A DNA stretch of 64,000 nt from Candidatus Shapirobacteria bacterium (GCA_020059745.1 JAGVBK010000004.1:26932-90931), one strand, 5' to 3'; positions 41,662 to 55,369 are shown, counted from the first letter of the stretch. Notes: generated from the letters alone by a model not told the origin. Translations and numbers: made by a program.

Positions 41662-41823
41662 TTAAACCGGAATTTCGTCGTCAACCGGCTTTTGTTCAGT
41701 AGCGCCAAAAAGACTCATTTCCTGACCGCAACAAAATAAACTTCCTCTGCCAACTTTTATGACCTTTACCTCATTGCCGCAAACGTTGCAGCGGTAATGC
41801 TCACCAACGGTCTTAACTGCCAT
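41662..41823 (-). CDS. desulforedoxin-type rubredoxin-like protein (53 aa)
   Basis: Below the ORF-track cutoff. GGAGG lies 5 nt upstream of ATG 41823. MAVKTVGEHYRCNVCGNEVKVIKVGRGSLFCCGQEM matches the desulforedoxin CxxC...CC pattern. Confidence 0.8.
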   Translation of the reverse strand: MAVKTVGEHYRCNVCGNEVKVIKVGRGSLFCCGQEMSLFGATEQKPVDDEIPV

Positions 41824-41865
41824 AAACACCTCCTTTAAAGGATTGTAACCAAAAGGATAGCTCTA

Positions 41866-41898
41866 GTCAAAAAAACAGGTAGCCTTAAGGCTACCTGT
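41866..41898 (-). terminator. rho-independent terminator after the KGG gene
   Basis: Perfect 24-nt palindrome acaggtagccttaaggctacctgt (41875-41898), followed on the minus strand by TTTTTTT. Confidence 0.8.
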
Positions 41899-41919
41899 TA
41901 AAGGAGACAGCAACTTTTT

Positions 41920-42066
41920 TTATTTGTTTTTATTATTGTTGTATTTTCTGCTTCTGGCCAGTCCGCCTTTTCGGCCTGCTTCAGCATGAGCTTTTGGGTT
42001 GCCAAACCAACCTCTGCCCCGGGGTGTTTGATTATCCATCATTTGCACATCGTCTTTATCTGCCAT
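41920..42066 (-). CDS. KGG-motif small stress protein (YciG/GsiB-like, 48 aa)
   Basis: Below the ORF-track cutoff. The RBS AAGGGGGGTGAT precedes ATG 42066. The translation is MADKDDVQMMDNQTPRGRGWFGNPKAHAEAGRKGGLARSRKYNNNKNK. Confidence 0.7.
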   Translation of the reverse strand: MADKDDVQMMDNQTPRGRGWFGNPKAHAEAGRKGGLARSRKYNNNKNK

Positions 42067-42139
42067 TTTTATCACCCCCCTTCAAAAATAGATTTTTCAT
42101 TACTAAGCAAAATCTTATTGTGCTTGATTAAGTTAATTG

Positions 42140-42167
42140 CTAAGGATCAGTAAGAGTTTTGTAAGAA
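42140..42167 (-). promoter_or_regulatory. three direct heptamers (TTCTTAC aaaa CTCTTAC tga TCCTTAG on the minus strand), arranged like a Pho box
   Basis: GTAAGAG at 42150-56 and GTAAGAA at 42161-67 are 11 bp apart, and CTAAGGA at 42140-46 is 10 bp further. The site is 83 nt upstream of the KGG gene ATG (42066). It abuts a TTGAAA-17nt-TACGAT promoter (42171-42199) for the response-regulator gene. Confidence 0.5.
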
Positions 42168-42232
42168 AGATTGAAATCGCCTCAAAAATAGCGTACGATA
42201 GCCATGATTAAAAAAATGGAGGGGTAAAAAAA

Positions 42233-42904
42233 ATGGTAAGAAATATACTGGTAATTGAAGACGAAAAAGATCTAAATCGCTACATAAAAGAGCTTCTTAC
42301 CGACAACGGCTATTCGGTCCAGGCAGCCACAAAAGGAACAGAGGCTTTGGAAATCATTAAAAAAACCGAGCCTGATTTAATTATTCTTGACCTAGGTCTT
42401 CCTGATATTGACGGCGAAAACATCTGCCGGCAAATTAAAAAAGAGCACCCTGATCTTCCCATCATTATTCTGACTGCCAAGGACGGAGTTTCCAACATTG
42501 TTCACGGCCTTGATATTGGCGCTGACGATTACATGACCAAACCATTTGACGGCGATGAGCTTTTAGCCCGGATTAAAGCAAGGCTAAGAAAAGTGCCAGG
42601 CTCAGCCGAAAGACTCAAAATTGCTGATCTTGAACTTAACCCCACTAATCACGAAGTTAAAAGAGGCAATAAAATTCTCAGGCTTACACCCCAAGAGTTT
42701 AAATTGCTTCATTATTTAATGGTTAACAAGGGGAGGATTTTAACCAGGGACATGATCTTAAGCCGACTTTGGGATTCTTCTCCCGACATTGAAACCAGGG
42801 TAGTTGATGTTTACATCGGTTACTTAAGAAAGAAAATTGATGTTGATTTTGATAAAAAGCTGCTTTATTCTGTCCGTGGTTTTGGTTATATGATTAAAGA
42901 ATAA
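42233..42904 (+). CDS. OmpR/PhoB-family response regulator (receiver plus winged-helix)
   Basis: Receiver motifs (ILVIEDE, DLIILDLGLPDIDG, LTAKD) and a C-terminal trans_reg_C domain (LTPQEFKLLHYLM...VDVYIGYLRKKI...RGFGY). Confidence 0.92.
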   Translation: MVRNILVIEDEKDLNRYIKELLTDNGYSVQAATKGTEALEIIKKTEPDLIILDLGLPDIDGENICRQIKKEHPDLPIIILTAKDGVSNIVHGLDIGADDYMTKPFDGDELLARIKARLRKVPGSAERLKIADLELNPTNHEVKRGNKILRLTPQEFKLLHYLMVNKGRILTRDMILSRLWDSSPDIETRVVDVYIGYLRKKIDVDFDKKLLYSVRGFGYMIKE

Positions 42905-44157
42905 AGCTCGTCTTTTTTCCTTTCTTTAATCTTAAGCGGCAGAGTTACCCTAAAGATAGAACCTTTGCCCAAAGTGCTCTCAACTTCAATTTTCCCCCGG
43001 TAATAGCGCAGAATTCTTTCCGTAATATAAAGGCCCAAACCTACTCCTGAAGAAGATTTTTTCCCTGAAACTGAGCGGTAAAAGGGCTGGAATACTTTTG
43101 TTTTATCCTCTTTGCTTATGCCAACTCCAAAGTCCTGAACCTCAATCTGAAGACTGCTTTCATCCGAAGAGAGTCTGACAACAACTTTATCAGCTTCCGG
43201 CGAATATTTAACCGCGTTTGAAAGAAGATTATTTATAGCCTGAGTTATTCTGGTTTTATCAGCAAAAATCTTTTTTTGAGTTTGTCCCTCAAGAACAATT
43301 TCATGCCGATGCTCGTCAATGAGACTAGCCTGAAAATCCCTTACAAGTTCTTTTACCAAGCGATCAAAACTAAAAAGCTCGTCGCTAAATTCCATTTTTC
43401 CGGCTCTTAGCCTGGAAAGATCGGTAATGTCGTTTATTATCTTTGTTAAGTGGTTGACTTTTTTGTCAATTTTTTTTAGATAAGAGACTGTCTCGACATC
43501 ACCCCTTTTTTCTAGTTTCTTAATTAAAAGCTGAGAAAAGCCTTTAATCGTGGCCAGTGGATTTTTAAGCTCATGCCCTAAAAAAATGTCTTTTTCCTTT
43601 TCTCTTTCTTTCCTCTCAGAAATATCAACAACATAGCTTATGCCCCTGTAATCCTCTGCTTCAATAAAAGCGCCACCGACTAAAACCGGAACGGTTTGAC
43701 CGTCTTTCCCAAGAAGCTCTTTTTCATAAGGTTTGCAGGAACCGCTTTTTGCCATTTGTCTATAGGCTCTCTCGTCCGCTTCCCAAAATTCAGGCGGAGT
43801 CAGCTCTTTTAAGCTAAACCTTTCTTTAAGAACTTCTTGCCTTTGGTAGCCAAGAATGTTTAAAAAAGCATCATTAAAATCAACAATTTCTTGCTTTTCG
43901 TTCCATAAAACAAGACCGATCATGTTTGACTCGGCAATCACTTTGAATTTTGCCTCACTTTGAGCCAGTCTTTCTTTTAGATAATTTCTCTCTGCAAATT
44001 CTTCTTTTAGAGTTATCTCCTCAACCGTTTTTTCTTTCACAGGCAGTGAAGTGTCAGAAGAAACATATTCTCTTTGGGCAGGTATATTTCTTTTCATTCC
44101 AATTTTCTTTCTAACTAAGCTGATTTTATCATCATTGCAACTTGTAAAAGAAATCAC
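42886..44157 (-). CDS. PAS-domain sensor histidine kinase (cytoplasmic)
   Basis: PAS region, H-box FLGHELKNPLATI, N-box LLSNAVKYS and G-boxes DFGVGI/GLGLYI. It is convergent with the response regulator and overlaps it by 19 nt. Confidence 0.9.
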   Translation of the reverse strand: MISFTSCNDDKISLVRKKIGMKRNIPAQREYVSSDTSLPVKEKTVEEITLKEEFAERNYLKERLAQSEAKFKVIAESNMIGLVLWNEKQEIVDFNDAFLNILGYQRQEVLKERFSLKELTPPEFWEADERAYRQMAKSGSCKPYEKELLGKDGQTVPVLVGGAFIEAEDYRGISYVVDISERKEREKEKDIFLGHELKNPLATIKGFSQLLIKKLEKRGDVETVSYLKKIDKKVNHLTKIINDITDLSRLRAGKMEFSDELFSFDRLVKELVRDFQASLIDEHRHEIVLEGQTQKKIFADKTRITQAINNLLSNAVKYSPEADKVVVRLSSDESSLQIEVQDFGVGISKEDKTKVFQPFYRSVSGKKSSSGVGLGLYITERILRYYRGKIEVESTLGKGSIFRVTLPLKIKERKKDELYSLII

Positions 44158-44233
44158 AGCTTAGCCGTTAAAAAATGAAGTTTCTTTCTGCCTCATTGTC
44201 TTTTTAAGGAATTAAAATTAAGTCGCAGAAAGG

Positions 44234-44251
44234 TAATAATTAGGTAAGAAA
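44234..44251 (-). promoter_or_regulatory. direct heptamer pair TTCTTAC-ctaa-TTATTAC (minus strand)
   Basis: GTAATAA at 44234-40 and GTAAGAA at 44245-51 are in 11-bp register, 76 nt upstream of the kinase ATG (44157). Confidence 0.5.
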
Positions 44252-44252
44252 C

Positions 44253-45059
44253 CTATTTTTCTTTTTTGAGAGATGAAAAAATACCAGTTTTTTTTATTGC
44301 CATATCTAAGCTTTTCTCAAGTTCGCTTTCAATTTCTTGCTCGGGAGTTGGGGCCGGTAGCTCACCCTTAGGCGGAGGCAGACGATCCTGGACCTTCTCC
44401 TCAATCAGGTTTAAAAGATCATCAGTATATGTGTCTTCGTAAAGCTCCGGCCTGAAGGGAATAGTTAAGCTGTCAACCAAACGAAGAGCAGTATCAAGTT
44501 CTTTTAGGGTAATTTCCTCTGACTTGGGAAGATTAAGTTCTTTTTGTTTTTTTATCTCCCAATCAAAACGCATTTGGTTAAGAAAAATTACGTTATCTTC
44601 AGCCTTAAGGATTCCCAGATGCTCTCTTGTTCTTATTACAAATTTGACAACACCAACCTTTTCCGAACGCTTAAGCGCTTCCCTTAAAAGGGCATATGAT
44701 TTTCTGCTCCCCTCCTCAGGTTCCAAAAAATAAGGCTTTTCCAAATACTTGGGATTAATTTCCTCTTCCTTGACAAAGTTCATCACCTCAATAGCTCTTG
44801 TCCGGTAAACATTGGCCCTTTCTAAGTCGTCATCCGTAACAGTCACATATTTTCCTTCTTTATACTCATACCCTCTTACAATATCGCTAAAAGCAACCTC
44901 CTCCCCTGTTTTGGCGCAAACGCGCACATATTGAATCGGACATAAATCTTTTTTTCTTAAAAAGAAAAATCTAAGTTTTTTTTGGTCCGTGGCATTATAA
45001 ATCTTAACCGGTATTCTCACCAAGCCAAAATCAATAAAACCGATTTTGATAGGCTTCAT
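44253..45059 (-). CDS. ku: Ku protein (non-homologous end joining)
   Basis: ORF track 44253..45098, with ATG 45059 preferred. FGLVRIPVKIYNAT and the following beta-barrel core match bacterial Ku. Confidence 0.88.
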   Translation of the reverse strand: MKPIKIGFIDFGLVRIPVKIYNATDQKKLRFFFLRKKDLCPIQYVRVCAKTGEEVAFSDIVRGYEYKEGKYVTVTDDDLERANVYRTRAIEVMNFVKEEEINPKYLEKPYFLEPEEGSRKSYALLREALKRSEKVGVVKFVIRTREHLGILKAEDNVIFLNQMRFDWEIKKQKELNLPKSEEITLKELDTALRLVDSLTIPFRPELYEDTYTDDLLNLIEEKVQDRLPPPKGELPAPTPEQEIESELEKSLDMAIKKTGIFSSLKKEK

Positions 45060-45165
45060 AAAAAAAACCTTATCTTTTAGGCTTAAACCCCAAGTCAAAA
45101 CCTGGTAATAAGAAGGAAAGATTTTACTATTGCATTTAAAAGAAAGTTAAGGTTAAATCTCAATT

Positions 45166-45639
45166 ATGCCTTTAATCGGGTTTTTTGACCAAAAAGACCA
45201 AAAAGAAGTAAATGGATTTATTGACGAAATTTTTTCGGAAATGGGTTGGAAAAAAGATTTTCTTTACGGAACAGAAGACATTGCCTCCTTTTTTAGCGGA
45301 AAAAGGGACGCTTTTTTTGTGGTAAAGGAAAATAACCAAATCACTGGAACCCTGGGCCTCAAAGAACTTGAAAACGGTAAAGGACTTTTAAAAAGGTTTT
45401 ATCTTGACAAAAATTGCCGGGGCCGGGGCGTTGCCCAAGATTTGCTAAAAAAAGCAGTTGAGTTTGCCCGAGAAAAAAGCTATGAAACTCTGGTTTTAGA
45501 CACCCAAGCCGATAACCTAAGGGCCCAAAGATTTTATGAAAAAAGCGGTTTTGTTCCTTTTAACCCTGAACCCAACCAAAAATGGCCTGAGTCGCTTCAT
45601 CCTGATATTTTTGTCTACAGAATGCTTAAACTGTCCTAA
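45166..45639 (+). CDS. GNAT-family N-acetyltransferase
   Basis: Acetyl-CoA motif A: RGRGVAQDLLKKAVEFAREK...RFYEKSGF. Confidence 0.85.
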   Translation: MPLIGFFDQKDQKEVNGFIDEIFSEMGWKKDFLYGTEDIASFFSGKRDAFFVVKENNQITGTLGLKELENGKGLLKRFYLDKNCRGRGVAQDLLKKAVEFAREKSYETLVLDTQADNLRAQRFYEKSGFVPFNPEPNQKWPESLHPDIFVYRMLKLS

Positions 45640-45655
45640 TTTACTAATTTGTTAC
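45638..45655 (+). promoter_or_regulatory. direct heptamer pair AATTTAC-taat-TTGTTAC (weaker motif member)
   Basis: 11-bp register, 38 nt upstream of the BON gene start at 45694. Confidence 0.35.
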
Positions 45656-45693
45656 AGATTTCATAACTAATCTTTGGAAGTTAAGCTTAGGCT

Positions 45694-46041
45694 TTGGCTA
45701 TGGCTGGTTTTAAATGGGGAAACTGGAATTATCCCCCCTGGGGCAGGGGTGTTTACACGCTTCCTTACCGGGCTTATCAGGAGGGCTCTTGTGCAGATTA
45801 TCAAGCTCTTGACCTGCGCTTAATGACAGACGAGGACTTAAGAGAAAATGTTATTTGGGCAATTTATGCCAATCCGGAAATTCCCAAAGAAGAAAAAGAC
45901 AAGATTGAAGTTAAAGCAAAAAATAAAACAGTGGTTCTTTCAGGAAAAGTCAAAAACCGCAAAAATAAAATCAGGGCATTTGTCTCGGCTCTGCAAACAC
46001 CCGGAGCAAGAAGTGTTAAAAACAACATCAAAGTAGCTTAA
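45694..46041 (+). CDS. BON-domain protein (OsmY-like)
   Basis: C-terminal BON pattern IEVKAKNKTVVLSGKVKNRKNKIRAFVSALQTPGARSVKNNIKV. Confidence 0.75.
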   Translation: MAMAGFKWGNWNYPPWGRGVYTLPYRAYQEGSCADYQALDLRLMTDEDLRENVIWAIYANPEIPKEEKDKIEVKAKNKTVVLSGKVKNRKNKIRAFVSALQTPGARSVKNNIKVA

Positions 46042-46137
46042 GATTAGTCCTTTTCCCATTCTCCAGTCGGGGTCTTTGTACTGATCCCAGGCACTATTAA
46101 AGGCCTCACGGTAAATGTCTTTTGCCTGCTCAGGCAA
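45940..46137 (-). pseudogene. ChaB-like fragment (N-terminal half only)
   Basis: DLPEQAKDIYREAFNSAWDQYKD matches the ChaB signature (LPxxAQxIYxEAFNSAWxxY). The conserved AHKVAWAAVK half is missing, and the ORF tail runs antisense into the BON gene. Confidence 0.4.
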
Positions 46138-46182
46138 GTCAGTTTTATTTAGATTAAAAATAAGTTATAAAAAAATAAGGGC

Positions 46183-46200
46183 TTCTTACTTTTTTATTAC
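46183..46200 (+). promoter_or_regulatory. direct heptamer pair TTCTTAC-tttt-TTATTAC (consensus copy)
   Basis: 11-bp register, 59 nt upstream of ATG 46260 of the Gly/Tyr-rich BON protein. Confidence 0.5.
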
Positions 46201-46259
46201 CACCTTATTTTCCCCGGTTAAACATAAAAAAATATCGTTAAAAAAAGGAGGTGATAAAT

Positions 46260-46730
46260 ATGTTTCCATACGGATACGGCTATGGCGGTTATGGAGGTTA
46301 TGGCGCCCCTTACGGCGGATACGGCTATGGCGGTTATGGAGGTTATGGCGCCCCTTACGGCGGTTATGGTTACGGCGGTTATGGACCTGGTTATTGGGGA
46401 TACGGGCCCGACTGGGACTATACAGACTATTATGACTACAACAGAAACCTTGTTCTTGACGATAATGAAATTGAAGATCTGGTAAGTGACAATATCGCCT
46501 CTGACCCCTATATTCCCCAAAGGGATGTTAACAGTATTGAGGTAAAAGTAGAAGATGGCGTAGTTCACCTTTCGGGAACTGTACGCAATCGAAGAAGCAA
46601 GCCTCTTGCTTACGCTGATGCTTTTTGGAGCCGGGGGGTGGTTGATGTGCAAAGCAATATCAAGGTTGAAGAAAGAAGCCGGGAAAGAGAGGAAAGAGGA
46701 AGAAAGAAAGAAAAAGAAGAAAGACAATAA
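46260..46730 (+). CDS. Gly/Tyr-repeat BON-domain protein
   Basis: ORF track 46251..46730. ATG 46260 is preceded by AAAGGAGGTGA. It has an N-terminal (GYGYGGYGGYGAPYG)n low-complexity region. This is followed by the BON domain (IEVKVEDGVVHLSGTVRNRRSKPLAYADAFWSRGVVDVQSNIKV) and a KE-rich tail. Confidence 0.85.
   Translation: MFPYGYGYGGYGGYGAPYGGYGYGGYGGYGAPYGGYGYGGYGPGYWGYGPDWDYTDYYDYNRNLVLDDNEIEDLVSDNIASDPYIPQRDVNSIEVKVEDGVVHLSGTVRNRRSKPLAYADAFWSRGVVDVQSNIKVEERSREREERGRKKEKEERQ
46271..46384 (+). repeat. 45-bp tandem repeat (two perfect copies plus a partial third)
   Basis: 46271..46315 and 46316..46360 are identical (cggatacggctatggcggttatggaggttatggcgccccttacgg), followed by a degenerate partial copy. 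Each copy encodes the 15-aa GY unit. Confidence 0.9.
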
Positions 46731-46736: not shown

Positions 46737-48275
46737 ATGAAGGCAGATCAACCGAAAAAAGAAAGCAGCTTGCCGGGAAAACCAAGCTCTTTTTGGCTGG
46801 AAACAGCCCCAGATAAACAGTTCCCAAAAGCTAAGGGCTATTTTTCTTTGGATGTTGCCGTTATTGGCGGTGGTATTGTGGGAATAACTACAGCCTACCT
46901 TCTTGGCAAAGCCGGATTAAAGGTAGCGGTTTTGGAAAAAGATAAAATTCTTCATGGCGTTACCGGCCATACCACCGCCAAGCTTACTTCCCAGCACGGA
47001 CTTATCTATCGCCATTTGATTAACAATTTTGGCCGGGAAAAAGCACAAACTTACGCAGAGGCCAACCAAAAAGCCATAGAAAAAGTGTTCGAAATCGCTG
47101 AAAAAGAAAAAATTGAATGTGATCTTAAAAGGGCCCTTGCTTATACTTACACAGAAGAAGAAAACGACAGAAAGGAAGCTTTAGAAGAAATAAAAGCCTG
47201 CCAAAGCTTAGGCTTGCCGGCAAAACTTAAAGAAGAAATTTCTTTACCTTTTAAGACCAAAGGCGCAGCCTGTTTTGAAAATCAAGCCATTTTTCATCCC
47301 TTAAAATTCCTTTACTCTTTGGCAGAAATTGTTTCAAAAAACGGCGGCTTAATTTTTGAAAATTCAAAAGTCATTAAGGTTAATGAAGGCAAAGAATGTC
47401 TTATTAAAACAGAAGAGGCAGAAATTAAAGCCAAAAAGGCAATTTTAGCCACCAACTTTCCCATTTACGATCAATGCTATTTTTTTGCCAGAATGTGGCC
47501 AAAACGCTCTTACGCTTTGGCGGTCAAGCTTAGAGAGAAGCTTCCTGAGGATTATTTTATTAGCTCAAGAAAAAAATTCCACTCCATCCGCCCGCATTTT
47601 TACGATAAAGGCTCAATTCTTATTATCGGCGGTGAGCCACACCGCACTGGACAGGGAAACGATACGGTCAAGCTCTATAAAAACCTTATTGAATTTGCCC
47701 AAAAAAATTTTGAAGTTGATTCTGTTTTATACCGCTGGTCAACTCATGACCAAATGCCGGCAGACAATGTCCCTTTTATTGGCAGAAGCTCCTTAAGGTC
47801 AAAAAACATCTTTGTTGCCACTGGTTTTAAAGGCTGGGGGATGTCTCACGGCATTGTGGCAGCCATGCTTTTTTTAGATTTAGTCAATGAGCAGAAAAAC
47901 CCCTGGGGTGAGCTCTATGATCCCTGTCGGTTTGAAGGAAAAGCGTCCGTAAAGACAATCATTGATCAAGGTATTACTGTTGCCAAAGAATATTTAGGGA
48001 ACCGTTTTCCCGGAAGAAAGCAGCAATCTCCCAGAGAATTAAAAAAGAAAGAAGCCGCAATAGGAGAAGAAAACAGCCAAAAAATTGCAATTTATAAAGA
48101 CGGTGAGGGGAAAAGCCATAAGGTCTCGGCTGTCTGTACTCACATGGGTTGCACTGTTTCCTGGAATAATGCTGAAAAAAGCTGGGACTGTCCTTGTCAT
48201 GGCTCAAGGTTTAACCATAAAGGTGAAGTTATTCATGCACCTGCAGTTAAAAATCTAAAAAAAATAAAGACTTAA
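46737..48275 (+). CDS. FAD-dependent oxidoreductase fused to a C-terminal Rieske [2Fe-2S] domain
   Basis: Dinucleotide fold VAVIGGGIVGITTAY and the Rieske motifs CTHMGC...CPCHGS. Confidence 0.88.
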   Translation: MKADQPKKESSLPGKPSSFWLETAPDKQFPKAKGYFSLDVAVIGGGIVGITTAYLLGKAGLKVAVLEKDKILHGVTGHTTAKLTSQHGLIYRHLINNFGREKAQTYAEANQKAIEKVFEIAEKEKIECDLKRALAYTYTEEENDRKEALEEIKACQSLGLPAKLKEEISLPFKTKGAACFENQAIFHPLKFLYSLAEIVSKNGGLIFENSKVIKVNEGKECLIKTEEAEIKAKKAILATNFPIYDQCYFFARMWPKRSYALAVKLREKLPEDYFISSRKKFHSIRPHFYDKGSILIIGGEPHRTGQGNDTVKLYKNLIEFAQKNFEVDSVLYRWSTHDQMPADNVPFIGRSSLRSKNIFVATGFKGWGMSHGIVAAMLFLDLVNEQKNPWGELYDPCRFEGKASVKTIIDQGITVAKEYLGNRFPGRKQQSPRELKKKEAAIGEENSQKIAIYKDGEGKSHKVSAVCTHMGCTVSWNNAEKSWDCPCHGSRFNHKGEVIHAPAVKNLKKIKT

Positions 48276-50138: not shown

Positions 50139-50156
50139 GTAATAAAGAGGTAAGCG
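50139..50156 (-). promoter_or_regulatory. direct heptamer pair CGCTTAC-ctct-TTATTAC (minus strand)
   Basis: GTAATAA at 50139-45 and GTAAGCG at 50150-56 are in 11-bp register, 75 nt upstream of the DUF378 ATG (50063). Confidence 0.45.
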
Positions 50157-50160: not shown

Positions 50161-51663
50161 CTAAGGAAAATTTAAGAAAACCTCTTTGAGTGTTTGCTTC
50201 TCTAGGTTAAACACTCTTATCAAGTGATTATTGGTATCTGAAATATAAAGGTTGTCTTTTGAAAAATAAACATCATTAGGTTCAAAAAGAGGTAAAACTT
50301 CACAAGACCTGTCGTTTATGGTGCAAAACCGGGGAGAATCCTCTCTTTTAATAAGGGAAGTCACTTTTCTTTCCCGAAGACTAAGATTCCTAATGGCATG
50401 ATTATAGGTGTCGGCTACAAACACCTCTCCTTCCTTAGCAAAAATCCCTAAGGGGTGCTGAAATTCCGCCTCGCCGAAAGAGCCATCTTTAAAACCAAAT
50501 TCGAACAAACCTTTGCCAACAAGGGTTTTTACCTCACCCTCTCTAAGGTCAATGTACCTGATGGCAGAAACCTCGCTGTCGGCAAAATATATTCTTTCTT
50601 TATAAATGCTTATTCCGCTGGGCTGAGCCATCTGGCTTGCAAGAAGACTTGCATCAACAATATTTTCAAGACCGCTTCCGGCAAAAACCCTAATCAGGTT
50701 TTCCGCAATATTAAGGCTAAAAATCTGATGGCTTCCGGCCATAGCTATATAAAGATAGCCTTCGGCATAATCAAGGTCCCAAGGCGAATTTAAACTAATC
50801 TCTAAAGATTTACTTTCACCCGAAGGAGCTACCCCTTGTCTGCCGTTTCCCGCCACCGTCTCCACCTCTTTTTTTCTTAAATCAACCCTTCTTAAAAGGT
50901 GGTTTTCCGTATCACAAATATAAAGAAAATCGCCTACCAAGCAAAGCCCTTGTGGCTGGTTAAAAGAAGCGTTTTCAAGAGAGCCGTCTCTATCTCCTTT
51001 TTTTCCTGAGCCAATAATCTCGGTCACTTTCACCTGGTCAGGAGAAAGAAATCGGCTTTCTATTATCCGGTGATGATTTGAATCAGAAATATAAAGATAT
51101 TCTCCCCGGGAATCCAGTGTAATTTTTGAAGGAAATGAAAGCGTGCTTTTTAAGACTGGCGTTTTTTTAATAAATTGAGGCGGAGCTTTTGCCAAAATCC
51201 CTCGATTTTTTCCTTCCTTAAGCAAACCTTCAACTGTTTTATCAAGCTGCAAACGCCAACCTTCTCCAGCCACCTGGCCCCTGATTGCTCCCTCTCCGTC
51301 AAGTAAAACAAAAGTGGGCCAAGCCCGCACAGTGTAGGCCTCCCAAAGCTCCCGGTTATTATCAAGAACAACCGGATGCTCAATTCCGTAGCGGGCAACG
51401 GCAGAGACAACATTTTCCTTCTTTTTTTCATTGGCAAACTTTGGCGAGTGAACACCAATAACTAAAAAGGGCTCATTTTTATACTTGTCCTCTAGATACT
51501 TAAGATCAGGAAGAATGTGAATACAGTTTATGCAACAGTAAGTCCAAAAATCGAGCAGAACTACATATCCTTTTAAATCTTTTAGGCTTAAGTCTTTTGA
51601 AGTGTTTAACCAAGTAGCTTCCTTAGGTAAATCCGGAGCATAGAGATTGTAAGCTTCAACCAT
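50161..51663 (-). CDS. thioredoxin-like (redoxin) domain fused to an NHL-repeat beta-propeller
   Basis: N-terminal FWTYCCINCIH (CxxC) redoxin fold and C-terminal repeated NHL units (YISDSNHHRI, YICDTENHLLRRV, VADTYNHAIR, YISDTNNHLIR). Confidence 0.85.
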   Translation of the reverse strand: MVEAYNLYAPDLPKEATWLNTSKDLSLKDLKGYVVLLDFWTYCCINCIHILPDLKYLEDKYKNEPFLVIGVHSPKFANEKKKENVVSAVARYGIEHPVVLDNNRELWEAYTVRAWPTFVLLDGEGAIRGQVAGEGWRLQLDKTVEGLLKEGKNRGILAKAPPQFIKKTPVLKSTLSFPSKITLDSRGEYLYISDSNHHRIIESRFLSPDQVKVTEIIGSGKKGDRDGSLENASFNQPQGLCLVGDFLYICDTENHLLRRVDLRKKEVETVAGNGRQGVAPSGESKSLEISLNSPWDLDYAEGYLYIAMAGSHQIFSLNIAENLIRVFAGSGLENIVDASLLASQMAQPSGISIYKERIYFADSEVSAIRYIDLREGEVKTLVGKGLFEFGFKDGSFGEAEFQHPLGIFAKEGEVFVADTYNHAIRNLSLRERKVTSLIKREDSPRFCTINDRSCEVLPLFEPNDVYFSKDNLYISDTNNHLIRVFNLEKQTLKEVFLNFP

Positions 51664-51671
51664 AGCGGTAG

Positions 51672-52148
51672 CTAAAGATTAAAACGGTCAAGTTCAGGCC
51701 AATAAACATCACCTGCCACTCCTAAAAGAGAGGCGCATTTTTTCAGGCAATCACTCGCGGCCGATTTAAGATCATCGGCAATACTGATAAGCTCACCGTT
51801 TCGGGTGTATTTTATGTCAGAACCGCCATACTGCGCCTTAACAATGGTATGGTCTTTTATCCTCACGGTTAGCTCTCCCCTAACCCAGACCTGTTTTTTC
51901 CCTACCTCCTGATCTAAAATCCGAAAATCCCAATCCCAACCAAAAGCCTGATTTAAAAGATTGACTACATACCCGATTTCCACATAGTCAAGCTCTTTGC
52001 CGCCCGGACCTGGTCTTTTTTTTATAAACTGCTTGGGTGTCTTTTGGGTAATAAAACTGCGCTGGGCCTGGTTTAGATTTTGCGGCAACTGGTTAAGTTT
52101 AAGGTCTTTTTCATTATTCTCTTCCATACGGTAAATATGAATTTTCAT
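51672..52148 (-). CDS. Rad52/Rad22-family single-strand annealing protein
   Basis: KRPGPGGKELDYVEIGYVVNLLNQAFGWDW and DDLKSAASDCLKKCASLLGVAGDVY align with the Rad52 N-terminal signatures ([26 protein letters not shown] and EAVTDGLKRALRSFGNALG). Confidence 0.75.
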   Translation of the reverse strand: MKIHIYRMEENNEKDLKLNQLPQNLNQAQRSFITQKTPKQFIKKRPGPGGKELDYVEIGYVVNLLNQAFGWDWDFRILDQEVGKKQVWVRGELTVRIKDHTIVKAQYGGSDIKYTRNGELISIADDLKSAASDCLKKCASLLGVAGDVYWPELDRFNL

Positions 52149-52171
52149 AATAAAAGAACCCTTAAAGCAAG

Positions 52172-52208
52172 GTAAGACCTTGGTAATAGATTCTTACTTT
52201 TGTCTTAC
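52172..52208. promoter_or_regulatory. four heptamers in two opposed pairs: GTAAGAC-cttg-GTAATAG and TTCTTAC-tttt-GTCTTAC
   Basis: 52172-78/52183-89 (facing the rad52-like gene) and 52191-97/52202-08 (facing the aldo/keto reductase, 44 nt before GTG 52253). Each pair is in 11-bp register. AAGGTAAGAC and GTCTTACCTT also form a 10-bp inverted repeat. Confidence 0.5.
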
Positions 52209-52252
52209 CTTCTTTAAACAAAGGGTTTGGTTTTGGCTTTTAAGATAAAAGG

Positions 52253-53023
52253 GTGGTATTTTTTGAGTTTAAAGACGGCAGTAAAGTTCCGGCATTAGGC
52301 TTGGGAACCTGGAACCTAACCGGAGAAAACGGTAAAAGAGCAGTCGCCAAAGCGTTGGAAATCGGCTACCGCCATTTTGACACCGCAGAAGCTTACGGCA
52401 ATCACCGTATTGTCGGCGAGGCAATCGCGGAAAGCGGGATAGAAAGAAAAGAAATATTTATTACCTCAAAAGTACCGTCAAGAAGTCTTTTAAAAGAGGC
52501 GGTTATTGAAAGCGGTAAAAGAGCTTTGGACGAACTTAAAACAGATTACCTTGACCTTTTTCTAATCCACTGGCCAAACCCTTCAGTTCCGATAAAAGAA
52601 ACACTTTCCGGTTTTAGTGAGCTTAAAGAAAAAGAATTAATTCGTTCAATCGGAGTTTCCAATTTCGGCATCGAAGAGCTTAAAGAAGCTTTAAAAGAAG
52701 GAGTGAAAATTGTAAATAACCAAGTGGAGCTTCATCCCTCTTTTAACCAAAGCAGGTTGAAGAGCTATTGTGCTGAAGAAAAAATTATAATCACCGCCTA
52801 CTCGCCTTTTGCCCAGGGAAAGGACCTCAAGCTCAAAGAAATAAATAAGCTTTCAGAAAAATACAACCATCCGGCTTCACAAATTATTATTAATTGGATT
52901 ATCCAAAAAGAAATGATTGCCATCCCAAAATCAGGAAACGAGGAACATCTTAGAGAAAATTTCAATGCCTTAGAGTGGAAACTGGCAAAAGAAGATATTG
53001 ATTTGATTGATAAAATTAGTTAA
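52253..53023 (+). CDS. aldo/keto reductase (2,5-diketo-D-gluconate reductase-like)
   Basis: GLGTW, HFDTAEAYGN and LIHWP motifs. GTG start. Confidence 0.88.
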   Translation: MVFFEFKDGSKVPALGLGTWNLTGENGKRAVAKALEIGYRHFDTAEAYGNHRIVGEAIAESGIERKEIFITSKVPSRSLLKEAVIESGKRALDELKTDYLDLFLIHWPNPSVPIKETLSGFSELKEKELIRSIGVSNFGIEELKEALKEGVKIVNNQVELHPSFNQSRLKSYCAEEKIIITAYSPFAQGKDLKLKEINKLSEKYNHPASQIIINWIIQKEMIAIPKSGNEEHLRENFNALEWKLAKEDIDLIDKIS

Positions 53024-53091
53024 ATTATAAAAACTCCCCTTGTTGTTTAAGTTTTGTTTGGTATAATTATCGACTTAACCGGAGTCAAAAA

Positions 53092-53727
53092 ATGATTCAA
53101 AAAATTAAAAGATGGTACAAAGAACTTCCCGATAATAAGCGCTACTTTGAACTTTTAAGCGCAGTGCTCTCTATTCCTGTTTTAGTTACGGTGATTCTTT
53201 TAAATGTTAACAATCTCGAAAACATGAGAAGCAGGTCAGTGGAAAAAGAAGCGGCCGGAAAAGCTCCGGAACCCACTGTCATTGAAAGAATTATTGAAAA
53301 AGAGGTTTCTCCCACCATTGAGCCGTCTCCTTCCCCAACCCCACCCGCTACTACCCCACAAGAATGCATTAAAGAAATCGGGCCGGTGGAAATAATCACT
53401 CCTTCTGAAAACGAAGTCATTGCCAAAGACCCAATTTGCATTGAAATCTCGCGCTCAAACAAGTATTGTTCTGTAGTCTGGTCCTATAGAATTAACGGAG
53501 GGTCTTGGTCTGATTTTACCGATAAGTCTATTTGCATCTACAGTCTTTCCCCTGGAGAAAAAAAGCTTGAGCTGAGAGTCAAAAGTTTAGTTTCAAACGA
53601 GCAAGTCTTACTTGAAAGAAACTTTACTATTAAAAGTGAGGAAATTCCTACCCCCGGACCAACCATTGAACCCGTTTCTGTGGAACCAAACAAAGAAAAC
53701 GACCCGAACAAAGTCTCGGAACTATAA
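53092..53727 (+). CDS. hypothetical membrane-anchored protein with a Pro-rich linker
   Basis: A TM (LLSAVLSIPVLVTVILL), a PSPSPTPPATTP linker and a beta-rich C-terminal domain. Confidence 0.55.
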   Translation: MIQKIKRWYKELPDNKRYFELLSAVLSIPVLVTVILLNVNNLENMRSRSVEKEAAGKAPEPTVIERIIEKEVSPTIEPSPSPTPPATTPQECIKEIGPVEIITPSENEVIAKDPICIEISRSNKYCSVVWSYRINGGSWSDFTDKSICIYSLSPGEKKLELRVKSLVSNEQVLLERNFTIKSEEIPTPGPTIEPVSVEPNKENDPNKVSEL

Positions 53728-53730
53728 TTC

Positions 53731-53748
53731 CTCTTACAAATTCCCTAC
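53731..53748 (+). promoter_or_regulatory. direct heptamer pair CTCTTAC-aaat-TCCCTAC
   Basis: 11-bp register, 78 nt upstream of ATG 53827 of the GlsB/YeaQ-family gene. Confidence 0.45.
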
Positions 53749-53826
53749 AAGTTATTAAAAAAAGCTTTAAGTATGCCGGTTAAGCTAGCTATAGATTGTT
53801 TTGAGAGCTCAAAGGAGGTGAAGATA

Positions 53827-54075
53827 ATGAATTTACTTTTGTGGATACTGCTCGGCCTTATTGCAGGCTGGCTGGCCTCAGTTATTGTCAGAACCAACCG
53901 CACCCAAGGACCGCTTATGGATATTATCCTGGGGGTTTTAGGCGCTTTAGTAGGAGGCTTTATTATGAGCTTGCTTGGTTTTGGCGGCATTACGGGATTT
54001 AATATCTATAGCATTATTGTGGCTACCCTGGGTGCTATTCTTCTTATTGTCTTGCGCCGGGCTTTATTAAGATAA
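53827..54075 (+). CDS. GlsB/YeaQ/YmgE-family stress-response membrane protein
   Basis: ORF track 53773..54075. ATG 53827 is preceded by AAGGAGGTGA. LLWILLGLIAGWLASVIV...ILGVLGALVGGF matches the family. Confidence 0.82.
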   Translation: MNLLLWILLGLIAGWLASVIVRTNRTQGPLMDIILGVLGALVGGFIMSLLGFGGITGFNIYSIIVATLGAILLIVLRRALLR

Positions 54076-54116
54076 AGGTTGTCCTAAAAAGGAGGTTGTG
54101 ATAAGGTAAAGTACTA

Positions 54117-55232
54117 ATGAAGTATCGGAGTTTTGGCAAGCTTGAGTATCAGCCTTCAGCTTTGGGGTTTGGAGCAATGAGGCTCCCTGTCTTAGGAGAC
54201 CCCCCAAGAATTGACGAAGAAAAAGCAATTAAAATGATTCACCGGTCAATTGAGGGCGGTGTCAATTATATTGACACCGCTTTTCCTTATCATAAAGGAG
54301 AAAGTGAAATCCTGGTCGGGAAAGCGCTTAAAGGCCAATACCGAAAAAGGGTAAAACTCGCCACCAAACTTCCCTCCTGGCTAGTAGAGGACAAAGCAGA
54401 CTTTGACAAGTTTTTAAACAAACAGCTTGAAAAATTGCAAACCGACCACATCGACTTTTACTTATTGCACAGCCTAGACAAAGAAAAATGGCAAAACCTT
54501 AATCGGCTTTCAGTCTTTTCTTGGGCGGAAAAAGCTGAAAAAGACGGAAGAATCGGTCATCTTGGCTTTTCCTTTCATGACCAGTATGAGGTTTTCAAAG
54601 AGATTGTTGACGGTTATGACAAGTGGACCTTTTGCCAAATTCAACTAAACTACATGGATGAAGATTTTCAAGCAGGGAAAAGGGGGCTAAAATATGCCTC
54701 CCAGAAAGGATTGGCCGTAGTGGTCATGGAGCCTTTAAAAGGAGGCAGGCTTGCCAACCCGCCAGAAGCTGTTAAGAACATCTTTGAAAGCGCCGGAAAG
54801 AAAACCCCGGTTGACTGGGCTTTGGGGTGGGTTTGGAGTCATCCAGAGGTTTCTTTGCTCTTAAGCGGCATGAGCAGCTTAGACCAAGTTGAAGAAAATC
54901 TTGCCATCGCTGACCGCTCGGCTGCCAACAGTCTTACGGAAAGAGACCTTAAAATAATCAAAAAAGCAAAGGAAAAATATCTTTCTTTCAAGCCTGTTCC
55001 CTGCACCGGATGTGAATACTGTCTTCCCTGCCCGCAAGCAATTAATATTCCCAAAATCTTTGAGATTTACAACGATGCAGTCATGTATGGCAATTTAAAG
55101 CAGGCAAAGGAACAATACCAAAGACTTAATGGCGTGGAAAATTGCTTAAAGTGCTTTCGCTGCGAAAAGCTCTGTCCTCAGGGTATAAAAATTACGGAGC
55201 AATTAAAAAAAGCCCAGGAGCTCTTGGCCTAA
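54117..55232 (+). CDS. aldo/keto reductase with a C-terminal 4Fe-4S-binding extension
   Basis: AKR core (GFGAMRLP, YIDTAFPYH, DFYLLH) and the C-terminal Cys clusters CTGCEYCLPCP and CLKCFRCEKLCP. Confidence 0.85.
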   Translation: MKYRSFGKLEYQPSALGFGAMRLPVLGDPPRIDEEKAIKMIHRSIEGGVNYIDTAFPYHKGESEILVGKALKGQYRKRVKLATKLPSWLVEDKADFDKFLNKQLEKLQTDHIDFYLLHSLDKEKWQNLNRLSVFSWAEKAEKDGRIGHLGFSFHDQYEVFKEIVDGYDKWTFCQIQLNYMDEDFQAGKRGLKYASQKGLAVVVMEPLKGGRLANPPEAVKNIFESAGKKTPVDWALGWVWSHPEVSLLLSGMSSLDQVEENLAIADRSAANSLTERDLKIIKKAKEKYLSFKPVPCTGCEYCLPCPQAINIPKIFEIYNDAVMYGNLKQAKEQYQRLNGVENCLKCFRCEKLCPQGIKITEQLKKAQELLA

Positions 55233-55369
55233 AAGCCGAGTATCCCCAACCTTGAAAGTGCAGCCCCAATCAGTCCAGCCACTAACCCGCACCAAAAAGG
55301 CAAAAGATTTAAAGAAGAAAAACCTTCTTTGTCAAAATCACAGCAAATCTTTAATTTTAGCTTTTTCAT
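55229..55369 (-). CDS. 46-aa hydrophobic ORF (tentative)
   Basis: Below the ORF-track cutoff, with translation MKKLKLKICCDFDKEGFSSLNLLPFWCGLVAGLIGAALSRLGILGF. Support comes from an upstream TTGACA (55414..55409) and the heptamer triple at 55421-55452. The RBS is weak. Confidence 0.3.
   Translation of the reverse strand: MKKLKLKICCDFDKEGFSSLNLLPFWCGLVAGLIGAALSRLGILGF

Follow-up and report, generated by a model that had tools for sequence, protein, structure and literature searches.

Promoters of the kind considered here are known from PhoB and PhoP. PhoB boxes are tandem 11-bp units placed 10 bp upstream of a -10 element of the form TAN3T (PMC1906773), and tandem dimers of PhoP bound to PHO boxes, whose spacer is 4 bp, displace the contact of sigma region 4 with the -35 (PMC11825685). 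About a dozen look-alike promoters of this design occur within 14 kb of a genome of the Microgenomates (candidate phyla radiation), a stretch that we call the island; it lies within a window of 64,000 nucleotides, the whole stretch of DNA that was analysed. Our analysis suggests that the island is probably a two-component-controlled regulon of stress-protection and DNA-break-repair genes, most likely under the control of a locally encoded OmpR/PhoB-type response regulator. If so, it provides a testable regulon in bacteria whose gene regulation is almost unstudied.

Promoter design and its recurrence

The shared element is a heptamer pair, TTCTTAC-N4-TT(C/A)TTAC, followed by two degenerate heptamers in 11-bp phase, then 10 nt and a TAnnnT -10 hexamer. 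No -35 element was found in these promoters, the mean -35 match being 2.2/6. This is how "PHO box" promoters are built, and the combination of 7-nt direct repeats, a 4-nt spacer, 11-bp phase and a last repeat 10 nt from the -10 is the signature of the OmpR/PhoB family. The window holds twelve such promoters (Table 1), 11 of them within 13.3 kb, at 42.1-55.4 kb, and all pair sites of the island set lie between genes, oriented toward the gene that follows; the -10 and transcription-start positions are predicted ones. Nine promoters follow the strict design, against 0.28 expected and a maximum of 3 in 100 simulated windows. The near fits are those of the kinase (GACAAT), of Rad52 (CATATT) and of a 46-aa ORF, the last having its -10 at +29 rather than +32 and a real -35, a layout that is the same in the related locus L172. 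The island genes that lack a co-oriented pair (desulforedoxin, regulator, pyrophosphatase) have good TTGAnn-17-TAnnAT promoters.

TCTTAC is the top-enriched 6-mer in the 1,404 nt of island intergenic DNA (11 observed, 0.74 expected, p=4.6e-10), and with a leave-one-out weight matrix each omitted site ranks 6th to 11th of 128,000 positions, the eight training sites being counted among those above it. Same-strand [CA]TTAC pairs in the island peak at 11 nt only (n=7). Across 235 kb of Microgenomates loci 31 such pairs are spaced at 11 nt, while other spacings give 0-6; 22 nt forms a second peak. In 2 Mb of unrelated loci the distribution is flat. Of 114 pair hits, 48 have a TAnnnT that begins exactly 32 nt further on, as has 1 of 83 in control loci, whose base composition differs from the window's; composition-matched simulations and the other 50 kb of the window are cleaner but smaller comparisons. 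In-phase degenerate heptamers occur at offsets 4 and 15, with heptamer scores of 6.8 and 6.9 against a baseline of 3-4.5.

In 13 other Microgenomates loci the design is found again, next to orthologues of the regulator and a GAF-kinase paralogue, whereas 1.99 Mb around unrelated OmpR-family regulators yielded no match of 18 bits or more. All related loci read (L002-L005, L162-L168) have a pair that adjoins the regulator gene or precedes its kinase operon, and in the alignment of orthologous KGG-regulator intergenic regions the pair is the most conserved block. Cluster synteny is kept in L162, L163, L164/L169, L170 and L172. Across nine genomes promoters are conserved at the KGG-like gene, both BON genes, the PsbP-like gene (L162, L163, L164, L170, L172), DUF378-DUF5652 (L163, L170, L172), the Rad52 operon (pair also in L169, L170, L171, L172), the Ku/kinase operon and GlsB, the GlsB-AKR2 pair being identical in L172. 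The orthologous BON promoters are strong (L163 14474, L170 17954), unlike the weak one of BON1. Relatives also carry genes of the YtxH and YflT families.

Table 1. Genes and predicted promoter elements of the island and the one strict promoter outside it (window coordinates)
Feature	Position	Strand	Details
Desulforedoxin, 53 aa	41662..41823	-	PF06397 E=3.8e-15; TIGR00319 E=8.9e-12; public annotation RJR25799.1
Desulforedoxin promoter	TTGACT 41870-41865; TACAAT 41847-41842	-	own, sigma-70-type TTGACT-17-TACAAT
Terminator	41899-41874	-	separates desulforedoxin from KGG-like gene
KGG-like small hydrophilic protein, 48 aa	41920..42066	-	by motif only
KGG-like promoter	42112..42167	-	pair 42150-42167; -10 TAAGAT 42112-42117
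Regulator promoter	TTGAAA 42171-42176; TACGAT 42194-42199	+	sigma-70-type; divergent from KGG-like promoter
OmpR/PhoB-family response regulator	42233..42904	+	proposed island regulator; PF00072 E=3.6e-33; PF00486 E=4.6e-24
Cytoplasmic PAS histidine kinase	42886..44157	-	PAS_9, HisKA, HATPase_c
Kinase promoter	44195..44250	-	pair 44233-44250; -10-like GACAAT 44195-44200
Ku, 268 aa from ATG 45059	44253..45059	-	PF02735 E=9.7e-46; start as called on L001
Ku promoter	45067..45122	-	three in-phase heptamers 45094-45122; -10 TAAGGT 45067-45072
GNAT acetyltransferase	45166..45639	+	divergent from Ku; no co-oriented heptamer pair
BON1 promoter	45638..45693	+	weak pair 45638-45655 (18/22); -10 TAGGCT 45688-45693
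BON1, single BON domain	45700..46041	+	PF04972 E=4.6e-10
ChaB relic (KTDLPEQ..AKDIYREAFNSAWDQYKDPDW)	46063..46146	-	PF06150 E=2.6e-6 over 21/60 profile positions
BON2/FAD-Rieske operon promoter	46183..46238	+	pair 46183-46200; -10 TATCGT 46233-46238
BON2	46260..46730	+	PF04972 E=2.8e-12; glycine/tyrosine-rich low-complexity N-terminus
FAD-dependent oxidoreductase, C-terminal Rieske domain	46737..48275	+	PF01266 E=7.4e-46; PF00355 E=3.3e-14
PsbP-like membrane-anchored protein	48272..48898	-	PF01789 E=3.6e-5; orthologues L162, L163, L164, L170
PsbP-like promoter	48905..48960	-	pair 48943-48960; -10 TAAGTT 48905-48910
Pyrophosphatase promoter	TTGAAA 48964-48969; TAGAAT 48987-48992	+	own, sigma-70-type
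Inorganic pyrophosphatase	49013..49558	+	
DUF5652 small membrane protein	49560-49823	-	E=1.3e-18; operon with DUF378 (49560..50063)
DUF378 small membrane protein	49836-50063	-	E=6e-22
DUF378-DUF5652 promoter	50101..50156	-	heptamers 50128-50156; -10 TAGATT 50101-50106
Thioredoxin-NHL fusion	50161-51663	-	thioredoxin-like and NHL domains; operon with Rad52 (50161..52127)
Rad52/Rad22-family protein, 151 aa from second ATG	51672-52127	-	PF04098 E=1.6e-9; orthologues 150-153 aa
Rad52 operon promoter	52134..52189	-	pair 52172-52189; -10-like CATATT 52134-52139
AKR1-hyp211 promoter	52191..52246	+	pair 52191-52208; -10 TAAGAT 52241-52246
Aldo/keto reductase 1 (AKR1)	52253-53023	+	E=4.7e-56; unit 52253..53727 with hyp211
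hyp211, 211 aa, no known family	53092-53727	+	behind AKR1
GlsB-AKR2 promoter	53731..53786	+	pair 53731-53748; -10 TAAGCT 53781-53786
GlsB/YeaQ/YmgE	53827-54075	+	PF04226 E=1.4e-10; NF007771 E=5.7e-18
Aldo/keto reductase 2 (AKR2), 4Fe-4S dicluster domain	54117-55232	+	E=1.5e-39; unit 53827..55232 with GlsB
46-aa hydrophobic ORF	55229..55369	-	called in JGI annotation
46-aa ORF promoter	55386..55438	-	pair 55421-55438; TTGACA 55414-55409; TAGGGT 55391-55386
Strict promoter outside island (sole one)	1824..1879	+	pair 1824-1841; -10 TAGTTT 1874-1879
Secreted 221-aa protein	1863-2528	+	behind the promoter above

Gene content

A sequence-only reading had described a cluster of small stress-type genes here, and profile searches bear this out for the desulforedoxin, two BON proteins, GlsB, DUF378, DUF5652, two aldo/keto reductases and the thioredoxin-NHL fusion. 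The KGG/YciG-like assignment of the 48-aa protein stands as a likeness of motif but not of profile: no Pfam or NCBIfam match was found, its orthologues reach E=0.007 and 0.064 against PF10685, below the gathering score, and BLASTP relates it to a PF10685-positive neighbour protein at E=9e-6. Its C-terminal GRGWFG..HAEAGRKGGLARSRKY is conserved in L162-L164. Both BON proteins match their family, but "OsmY-type" is a loose label, each having one BON domain and no signal peptide that we could find. The ChaB fragment, although it matches its profile, is a relic: it lacks the C-terminal half, its ORF extends into BON1 on the opposite strand, no promoter was found, and no public annotation calls it. 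The three sub-60-aa ORFs described as invisible are real genes, already in public annotations and hidden only by the first-stage ORF cutoff; for the 46-aa one, a search of 1.84 billion representatives gave a single relative, at 84% identity. For several genes the mechanical ORF list places the start too far 5', better starts being GlsB 53827, Ku 45059, Rad52 52127, BON2 46260 and BON1 45700.

That most of these genes carry the heptamer pair holds far beyond chance, the exceptions being the desulforedoxin gene, where no pair was found, and the ChaB relic. Both would fall outside the co-regulated set, the desulforedoxin gene because it has its own promoter and no pair. Ku, Rad52, the PsbP-like protein and the FAD-Rieske oxidoreductase, absent from the earlier list, also belong to the set. 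The FAD-Rieske gene starts 6 nt past BON2, and the Rad52 and AKR1-hyp211 promoters are back to back. The ATG codons of the PsbP-like and Rad52 genes lie 6 nt 3' of the -10 and of the -10-like CATATT respectively, and the Ku mRNA is probably leaderless, since its ATG lies 7 nt downstream of the -10.

In model bacteria the BON, KGG-like, GlsB, YtxH and YflT families are under sigma-B or sigma-S. It had been remarked that no alternative sigma factor is in view, and indeed a scan of ~70 window ORFs gave no sigma-70 or sigma-54 domain; this holds for the window and cannot be extended to the genome. In a related Levyibacteriota locus an ECF sigma is encoded 3 kb from that locus's own regulator. The idea of a differently wired general stress response keeps its shared cis-element and its lack of a sigma factor in the window, but "stress" itself is read from family names only, and several members have no known function.

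The regulator, the kinase and competing explanations

The best PDB match of the island regulator is to the PhoP-PHO box structures of PMC11825685, M. tuberculosis PhoP being its best solved relative (E=8e-47). The canonical residues E9, D10, D53, T81 and K103 are invariant, and so, over 12 orthologues and paralogues, is the recognition-helix stretch R189-V190-V191-D192-V193-Y194, G196-Y197-L198-R199-K200-K201. The wing residues R215-G216-F217-G218-Y219 and S213 are likewise invariant. Across regulators 47-100% identical the helix stretch does not vary and the wing hardly does. Kinase and regulator genes are convergent with a 19-nt overlap, an arrangement kept in L162-L164, and the heptamer pair of the KGG-like gene directly adjoins the -35 of the regulator's divergent promoter. 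We call the kinase cytoplasmic because sequence inspection of its N-terminal 70 residues found no hydrophobic segment. The sequence-only reading had not linked the motif to this in-cluster regulator and PAS kinase.

Could the pair instead be part of a promoter for an alternative (stress) sigma factor encoded elsewhere, making this a conventional sigma-factor regulon? A fixed distance from motif to -10-like hexamer is also expected of a composite promoter, the Levyibacteriota locus does carry an ECF sigma, and the 64 kb examined belong to a contig of at least 371 kb. However, the distance of the conserved element from the -10 is 32 nt instead of 16-18 nt, and its direct repeats, two to four to an array, keep strictly to an 11-bp phase, an arrangement that to our knowledge no sigma region 4 recognises. 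Moreover, the -10, TAnnnT, is of the housekeeping kind, the window ORFs scanned yielded no sigma domain, and from genome to genome the motif goes with the gene of the OmpR-family regulator, so that we consider this explanation very unlikely. We also think it unlikely that a repressor or some other transcription factor uses the arrays as its operators, proximity to the regulator gene being coincidental or reflecting cross-regulation only. The window does encode other DNA-binding proteins (ArsR-type 37678-37944, DUF134 57146-57427, a weak HTH protein 57807-58418), and 5' of the kinase operons of some GAF-type loci the pair is reversed (L003 at 4501, L004 at 13724). Yet direct repeats with 7+4 spacing are typical of tandem dimers of OmpR/PhoB winged-helix proteins, while ArsR and other dimeric HTH proteins bind inverted repeats; the arrays sit 5' of the -10 at the place of the -35, with no -35 present, a geometry that suggests activation, and the regulator and a kinase are the only genes common to all motif-bearing loci.

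Another reading makes the two-component system the lineage's equivalent of PhoR/PhoB, with phosphate starvation switching the island on. The promoters are built like pho boxes (PMC1906773), PnpS and PhoR head the NCBIfam matches of the kinase, though below threshold, PhoB ranks second for the regulator, and the island contains an inorganic pyrophosphatase gene. We nevertheless judge it quite improbable: the regulator scores 205 bits against a PhoB cutoff of 296 and the kinase 164 against a PhoR cutoff of 334, and no pst, phoU or phosphatase genes were found behind ~50 promoters or in ~250 kb of related loci. The pyrophosphatase gene has its own sigma-70-type promoter, the pair being directed away from it, and the kinase lacks a membrane anchor, the paralogue class having a GAF sensor instead. 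As for an accidental neighbourhood of small genes without common regulation, the motif being a compositional artefact, the island intergenic DNA is AT-rich and generic sigma-70-like promoter matches occur at chance level (28 found, 25 expected). But the enrichment, spacing, leave-one-out and simulation tests reject chance, as far as sequence analysis reaches, and the design is conserved at orthologous positions although other intergenic DNA has diverged; we give this reading almost no credence.

Proposed mechanism and its precedents

On the two-component reading that we favour, the cytoplasmic PAS kinase would sense an intracellular signal and phosphorylate the regulator, which would bind the tandem heptamers (consensus TTCTTAC, 11-bp spacing) as head-to-tail dimers. 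In each target promoter the distal pair, at about -62 to -45, is the strong one, whereas the proximal pair (TTTTTAY-N4-TTYTTAA) is degenerate and ends 10 nt 5' of the TAnnnT -10. Because the proximal pair occupies the site of the missing -35, we infer that activation proceeds through heptamer binding, a regulator tetramer substituting for -35 recognition and recruiting the housekeeping RNA polymerase. Switched on would be protective small proteins (KGG-like, two BON, GlsB, DUF378, DUF5652, the 46-aa peptide, PsbP-like), redox enzymes (thioredoxin-NHL, FAD-Rieske, two aldo/keto reductases) and the double-strand-break repair proteins Ku and Rad52, presumably as a stress or dormancy programme; the kinase gene, itself among the targets, would provide positive feedback. 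The heptamers would be bound by the island regulator or by a GAF-kinase-linked paralogue whose recognition helix is the same. Such a paralogue occurs in at least one related genome (L164 and L165 being one assembly), and therefore the local regulator may share the sites with another protein or may not bind them at all.

The role proposed for the island regulator is that of PhoB at pho boxes, where the activator replaces -35 recognition, and M. tuberculosis PhoP at two-box promoters is likewise a precedent for the proposed action of a tetramer.

Heptamer pairs and the promoters built on them

Our analysis of the upstream regions suggests that the island (42.1-55.4 kb of the window), where small stress-type and repair genes lie behind a shared promoter motif, is most likely an OmpR/PhoB-type regulon, that is, a regulon of a known type. 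The motif is a direct repeat, TTCTTAC-N4-TT(C/A)TTAC (the heptamer pair), seen in the upstream regions in arrays of two to four repeats. In an unbiased k-mer count over the island's intergenic DNA (1,404 nt), CTTAC, TCTTAC and TTCTTAC rank highest, with 11 occurrences of TCTTAC against 0.74 expected (p=4.6e-10), and the strong sites are all intergenic and all point toward the downstream gene. When sites are left out one at a time, the held-out ones still rank 6th to 11th among 128,000 positions, with the eight training sites among the higher ranks; nine sites score above 20, against a best matrix score of 14.7 outside 42-55.5 kb. Moreover, same-strand [CA]TTAC pairs have a single spacing peak, at exactly 11 nt, in the island (n=7); the same spacing recurs 31 times in 235 kb of related loci, where a second peak lies at 22 nt, and 2 Mb of unrelated loci have no peak.

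How is such a pair placed relative to the promoter? A TAnnnT sequence starts exactly 32 nt past the pair in 48 of the 114 pair matches in the window and 13 Microgenomates loci, compared with 1 of 83 in controls. The gap between pair and -10 holds two more heptamers, degenerate but in 11-bp register with the pair: TTTTTAY (offset 4, heptamer score 6.8) and TTYTTAA (offset 15, score 6.9), against a baseline of 3-4.5. (The score is blind to the spacer; an earlier matrix with AT-rich spacers under-scored perfect pairs with GC-rich ones, such as that at 9935 in the related locus L169.) In the 48 promoters the last heptamer occupies offsets 15-21 and is followed by 10 nt and then by TAnnnT at offset 32, and the mean match to TTGACA at the usual -35 position is 2.2 of 6. 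The fixed distance and the two in-register heptamers thus give the layout H1-4-H2-4-h3-4-h4-10-TAnnnT, in which H1 and H2 are strong and h3 and h4 degenerate. In its strict form it occurs 9 times in the window, while simulated windows of the same composition hold a mean of 0.28 and a maximum of 3. We rejected the possibility that the second heptamer substitutes for a -35 element 17 nt from the -10, there being no consistent -10 at that distance. A generic sigma-70 scan performed at chance level overall (28 promoters found, 25 expected), and we use only three of its matches, those before genes that have no co-oriented pair: desulforedoxin, regulator and pyrophosphatase, each with a good TTGAnn-17-TAnnAT promoter.

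Predicted promoters and other features of the island and its surroundings (window positions; a promoter is listed by its heptamer pair unless stated otherwise)
Feature	Position	Strand	Remarks
KGG-like gene	42150-42167	-	strict layout
Kinase	44233-44250	-	near-strict: GACAAT at +32
Ku	45105-45122	-	strict layout
BON1	45638-45655	+	strict layout, weak pair (18/22)
BON2 / FAD-Rieske	46183-46200	+	strict layout
PsbP-like	48943-48960	-	strict layout
DUF378-DUF5652	50139-50156	-	strict layout
Rad52 / thioredoxin-NHL	52172-52189	-	near-strict: CATATT at +32
Aldo/keto reductase 1 (AKR1) / 211-aa ORF	52191-52208	+	strict layout
GlsB-aldo/keto reductase 2 (AKR2)	53731-53748	+	strict layout
46-aa ORF	55421-55438	-	near-strict: real TTGACA-17-TAGGGT, -10 at +29
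Secreted 221-aa protein, outside island	1824-1841	+	strict layout; whole promoter 1824-1879
Weak site (whole promoter)	56328-56383	-	pair 17/22 (TTCTTTAgtttTCCTTAC), TAGTTT at +32
Short -10-to-ATG sites	45059-45072, 45688-45702, 48896-48910, 52125-52139, 56319-56333		predicted promoters
Regulator gene	42233-42904	+	
Kinase gene	42886-44157	-	
Ku gene	44253-45059		
BON2 low-complexity N-terminus	46260-46420	+	
Rad52/Rad22-family gene	51672-52127		
Y-family polymerase gene	40023-41276		
Secreted 221-aa protein gene	1863-2528		
Methyltransf_24 gene	55719-56321		
Four tRNA genes (Trp, two Met, Ile-TAT)	2580-6589		
Tyrosine recombinase/integrase gene	4877-5740		same stretch as the tRNA genes
HerA/TraG-like ATPase gene	7163-9502		
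23S rRNA intervening-sequence protein gene	32600-32986	-	PF05635, E=1.8e-39
MASE3 histidine kinase gene	58541-60040	+	PF17159, E=9e-80

Two of these promoters lie beyond the island. One, 40 kb away, precedes the gene of a secreted 221-aa protein with a lysine/glutamate-rich C-terminus and no Pfam family, a possible dispersed member of the regulon. The other, the weak site upstream of the Methyltransf_24 gene and an 80-aa ORF, suggests that the island may extend to 56.4 kb.

Several gene starts can already be corrected by the promoter model, which also predicts where transcription begins. We place the GlsB start at 53827, since residue 19 of the long ORF is where the NCBIfam match sets in; for Ku we take 45059, the start called on the comparison locus L001; the Rad52 start is the second ATG, consistent with orthologues of 150-153 aa; and the BON2 start has been moved to 46260. 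The ATG follows the predicted -10 by no more than 6-7 nt at five sites (Ku, BON1, PsbP-like, Rad52 and a methyltransferase), which suggests leaderless transcripts. The remaining targets have normal Shine-Dalgarno leaders.

Regulator, kinase and their relatives

The regulator, identical to a public Candidatus Microgenomates protein, combines a receiver domain (PF00072, E=3.6e-33) with a Trans_reg_C winged-helix domain (PF00486, E=4.6e-24), and its phospho-acceptor pocket is intact, with E9, D10, D53, T81 and K103 invariant. Among proteins of solved structure it is closest to M. tuberculosis PhoP (E=8e-47), MtrA, DrrD, RegX3, PrrA and KdpE, and it scores below every NCBIfam equivalog cutoff with which we compared it (in bits, copR-type 214/279, PhoB 205/296, MtrA 204/300, RpaB 185/330). 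Judged by sequence, it is not an orthologue of any named regulator. The kinase, a soluble PAS-HisKA-HATPase_c protein, likewise falls below its equivalog cutoffs (PnpS 182/400, PhoR 164/334). Its gene adjoins that of the regulator in convergent orientation, the two overlapping by 19 nt at their 3' ends (42886-42904) and forming no operon, and the pairing is retained in the related loci L162-L164. The convergent layout as such is kept in all related loci (L162-L164, L002-L004), with the sensor switching between PAS and GAF. Another histidine kinase gene lies 3 kb to the right of the island with no adjoining regulator gene; its product has a MASE3 membrane sensor domain and could provide a further input to the regulator.

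Regulator orthologues at 75-80% identity occur in four related Microgenomates loci or locus pairs (L162, L163, L164/L169 and L170), and there the gene order is retained: methyltransferase, Y-family polymerase, 79-aa ORF, KGG-like gene, regulator and convergent PAS kinase, followed by two BON genes, PsbP-like, pyrophosphatase, DUF5652, DUF378, thioredoxin-NHL and Rad52. The promoter design is found in these loci before the KGG-like gene, the kinase or Ku operon, both BON genes, PsbP-like, DUF378 and Rad52. When the intergenic region between the KGG-like gene and the regulator is aligned, the heptamer pair is the most conserved block; the ribosome-binding site and the -35 and -10 of the regulator's promoter are conserved as well. 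Regulators of a second class, 63-69% identical, go with GAF kinases; their neighbourhoods hold GlsB, a canonical KGG protein, YflT, BON and small ORFs, and the heptamer arrays there are very strong. Locus L165, from the same assembly as L164, belongs to this class. The two classes share an invariant recognition-helix stretch (R189 to Y194, G196 to K201) and a nearly invariant wing, with S213 and R215 to Y219 fixed and residue 214 being V or I. GlsB stands directly behind a heptamer promoter in nine genomes.

The controls behave differently from these loci: 1.99 Mb around unrelated OmpR-family regulators contain no match of at least 18 bits. A search of metagenome contigs for the regulator returned no relative above 47% identity, and the loci from that search serve only as negative controls. 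Regulator-centred related loci hold no homologues of the 46-aa, 211-aa, FAD-Rieske, AKR2, GNAT and desulforedoxin genes, and the right-hand part of the island is common only to the close relative L172.

Two further promoters in the related loci touch on gene calling. At 6024-6186 of L165 a very strong promoter (pair 22/22) has no called gene downstream; the KGG promoter at 7608 of that locus has the same 23 nt past its pair (tgctttcttgttgtattttaaat). What the promoter at 6024-6186 transcribes may be a small ORF missed in gene calling, or a small RNA. At 8134-8379 (-) of the comparison locus L168, a GlsB homologue of 43% identity (tblastn) lies behind a strict promoter where the public annotation instead calls a 117-aa ORF (8141-8494) from the other strand, probably in error.

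Gene content of the island

The sequence-only reading had listed a set of small stress-type proteins here, and profile searches confirm the desulforedoxin, the two BON proteins (each of a single domain), GlsB, DUF378, DUF5652, the two aldo/keto reductases and the thioredoxin-NHL fusion. The 48-aa protein that it named KGG/YciG-like is encoded by a real gene, but its family membership can be called only KGG-like: it has no Pfam or NCBIfam match of its own, and its orthologues reach 17.1 bits (E=0.007) and 14.1 bits (E=0.064) against PF10685, the KGG repeat family, whose gathering threshold is 20.4 bits. It does align with the second repeat of a PF10685-positive L165 protein (BLASTP E=9e-6). The ChaB fragment does match ChaB in part, retaining KTDLPEQ and AKDIYREAFNSAWDQYKD, but it covers only profile positions 9-29 of 60 (PF06150). 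Its ORF runs antisense into BON1 and is uncalled in the public annotation, a search of all frames for a full-length, frameshifted gene found the C-terminal half absent, and the piece is a relic. Three short ORFs said to escape an ORF length cutoff are real, but all three had already been called in public annotations. A single relative of the 46-aa ORF turned up, 84% identical to it; neither Pfam nor NCBIfam has a match for it or for the 79-aa, 211-aa and 80-aa ORFs.

The list had passed over several neighbours: the OmpR-family regulator, the soluble PAS histidine kinase, Ku, a Rad52/Rad22 protein, a FAD-Rieske oxidoreductase, a PsbP-like protein, an inorganic pyrophosphatase and, just upstream, a Y-family DNA polymerase. 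The genes for Ku, Rad52 and the polymerase lie within 12 kb, the first two behind heptamer promoters and the polymerase not, and the window encodes no LigD-type ligase. The first ~50 residues of BON2 are of glycine/tyrosine-rich low complexity (GYGGYGGYGAPYGGYGYGG...), which looks like an intrinsically disordered region fused to the BON domain. Rfam finds only the four tRNAs, and no riboswitch or known small RNA in the island leaders. Elsewhere in the window, the tRNA genes, integrase and HerA/TraG-like ATPase may together be remnants of a mobile element, and the gene of a 23S rRNA intervening-sequence protein stands alone amid genes for glycolysis, the pentose-phosphate pathway and Fe-S clusters.

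The output combines KGG-like, BON and GlsB families with redox enzymes, Ku/Rad52 break repair and several unknowns, a mix that, by annotation, would fit a survival or dormancy programme.

Control of the island and known systems

What would drive these promoters? Motif and regulator co-occur across genomes, and the wiring is most likely that of a two-component system. Since the promoter geometry matches the two-box, four-protomer arrangement of PhoP and PhoB, we propose that the phosphorylated regulator would bind as two head-to-tail dimers and activate housekeeping-polymerase promoters that have no -35 element. The pair abutting the regulator's own promoter would then provide autoregulation, and the heptamer promoter of the kinase gene positive feedback. 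Binding and activation are inferred in this model, as is the inducing signal. Given this likeness, the island could be thought a Pho regulon under PhoR and PhoB. However, regulator and kinase score below the PhoB and PhoR equivalogs, and neither in the window nor in 14 related loci does a pst, phoU or phosphatase gene stand behind a motif-bearing promoter, so that a Pho regulon is unlikely.

A general stress regulon driven by a sigma factor of the sigma-B, sigma-S or EcfG type is a further reading, to which we give a low rank. The targets have a TAnnnT -10 with repeat arrays in place of a -35, and profile searches of ~70 window ORFs detect neither Sigma70_r2/r4 nor sigma-54 domains, and hence no dedicated alternative sigma factor, as the sequence-only reading had observed. 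That reading had gone on to propose a differently wired stress response. This is supported in part: the wiring is most likely that of a two-component system, but a genome-wide lack of stress sigma factors cannot be claimed, since an ECF sigma factor lies 3 kb from the regulator in a related Levyibacteriota locus.

If the two-component reading is true, a reduced genome would run a general-stress-like programme with one two-component system in place of an alternative sigma factor; the programme would consist of protective small proteins, redox enzymes and double-strand-break repair, and DUF378, DUF5652, the PsbP-like protein, the 46-aa peptide and the 211-aa protein would be marked as stress-linked. 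More generally, we put forward, as a tentative idea somewhat short of probable, that a single family of OmpR-type regulators has taken the role of sigma-B or sigma-S in Microgenomates and perhaps in more of the candidate phyla radiation. With PAS-kinase and GAF-kinase inputs, one recognition helix and one operator (TTCTTAC in 11-bp phase), it would drive a conserved, partly leaderless survival or dormancy programme of hydrophilin-like and small membrane proteins and Ku/Rad52 repair. Most bacteria of this radiation cannot be grown alone, and for that reason their gene regulation is almost uncharted; in the literature searched, no regulon of this kind is described for Patescibacteria or Microgenomates. 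What the island offers for this little-studied lineage is a regulator together with a precise model of operator and promoter and a list of conserved targets, each of which can be tested.

The sigma-B regulon of Bacillus and the sigma-S regulon of E. coli include the families KGG (GsiB, YciG), BON (OsmY), GlsB/YmgE/YeaQ, YtxH and YflT. The island shares BON and GlsB with them and has a KGG-like protein, YtxH and YflT appearing only in related loci; unlike them, it includes Ku and Rad52, its targets are physically clustered, no sigma factor is encoded in the window, and control would lie with activator-dependent promoters of housekeeping type rather than with sigma replacement. DosR of M. tuberculosis is a NarL-family regulator with palindromic boxes, served by haem-GAF kinases, and differs from the island in family, box symmetry, sensors and gene content. 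A likeness lies in DosRST being a two-component system with PAS/GAF-type cytoplasmic sensing that, by way of tandem boxes at fixed promoter positions, controls a few dozen mostly small, poorly characterised survival genes (PMC3177182); its pathway is also autoregulated, as is proposed for the island.

Cyanobacterial RpaB is, in the available part of PMC6525291, an OmpR-family regulator of an acclimation and stress regulon. The half-site of its HLR1 element, (G/T)TTACA, resembles the island's CTTAC(A/C/T), and activating HLR1 sites are centred ~51 nt upstream of the start (-66 to -45), where the island's strong pair lies at about -62 to -45. However, HLR1 has 8-nt repeats with a 2-nt gap and a 10-bp period in place of 7+4, that part of the paper describes no degenerate proximal pair, and the targets are unrelated.

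With E. coli PhoB and M. tuberculosis PhoP the island shares the regulator family (REC plus winged-helix domain) and binding units that are direct repeats of 11-bp period (7-nt repeat, 4-nt spacer). [quoted passage not shown] The differences are that the island's half-site is TTCTTAC rather than CTGTCAT or TCACAGC, that its distal pair is strong and its promoter-proximal pair degenerate, that its kinase is soluble and encoded convergently with the regulator rather than co-transcribed, and that its targets are stress and repair genes instead of phosphate genes.
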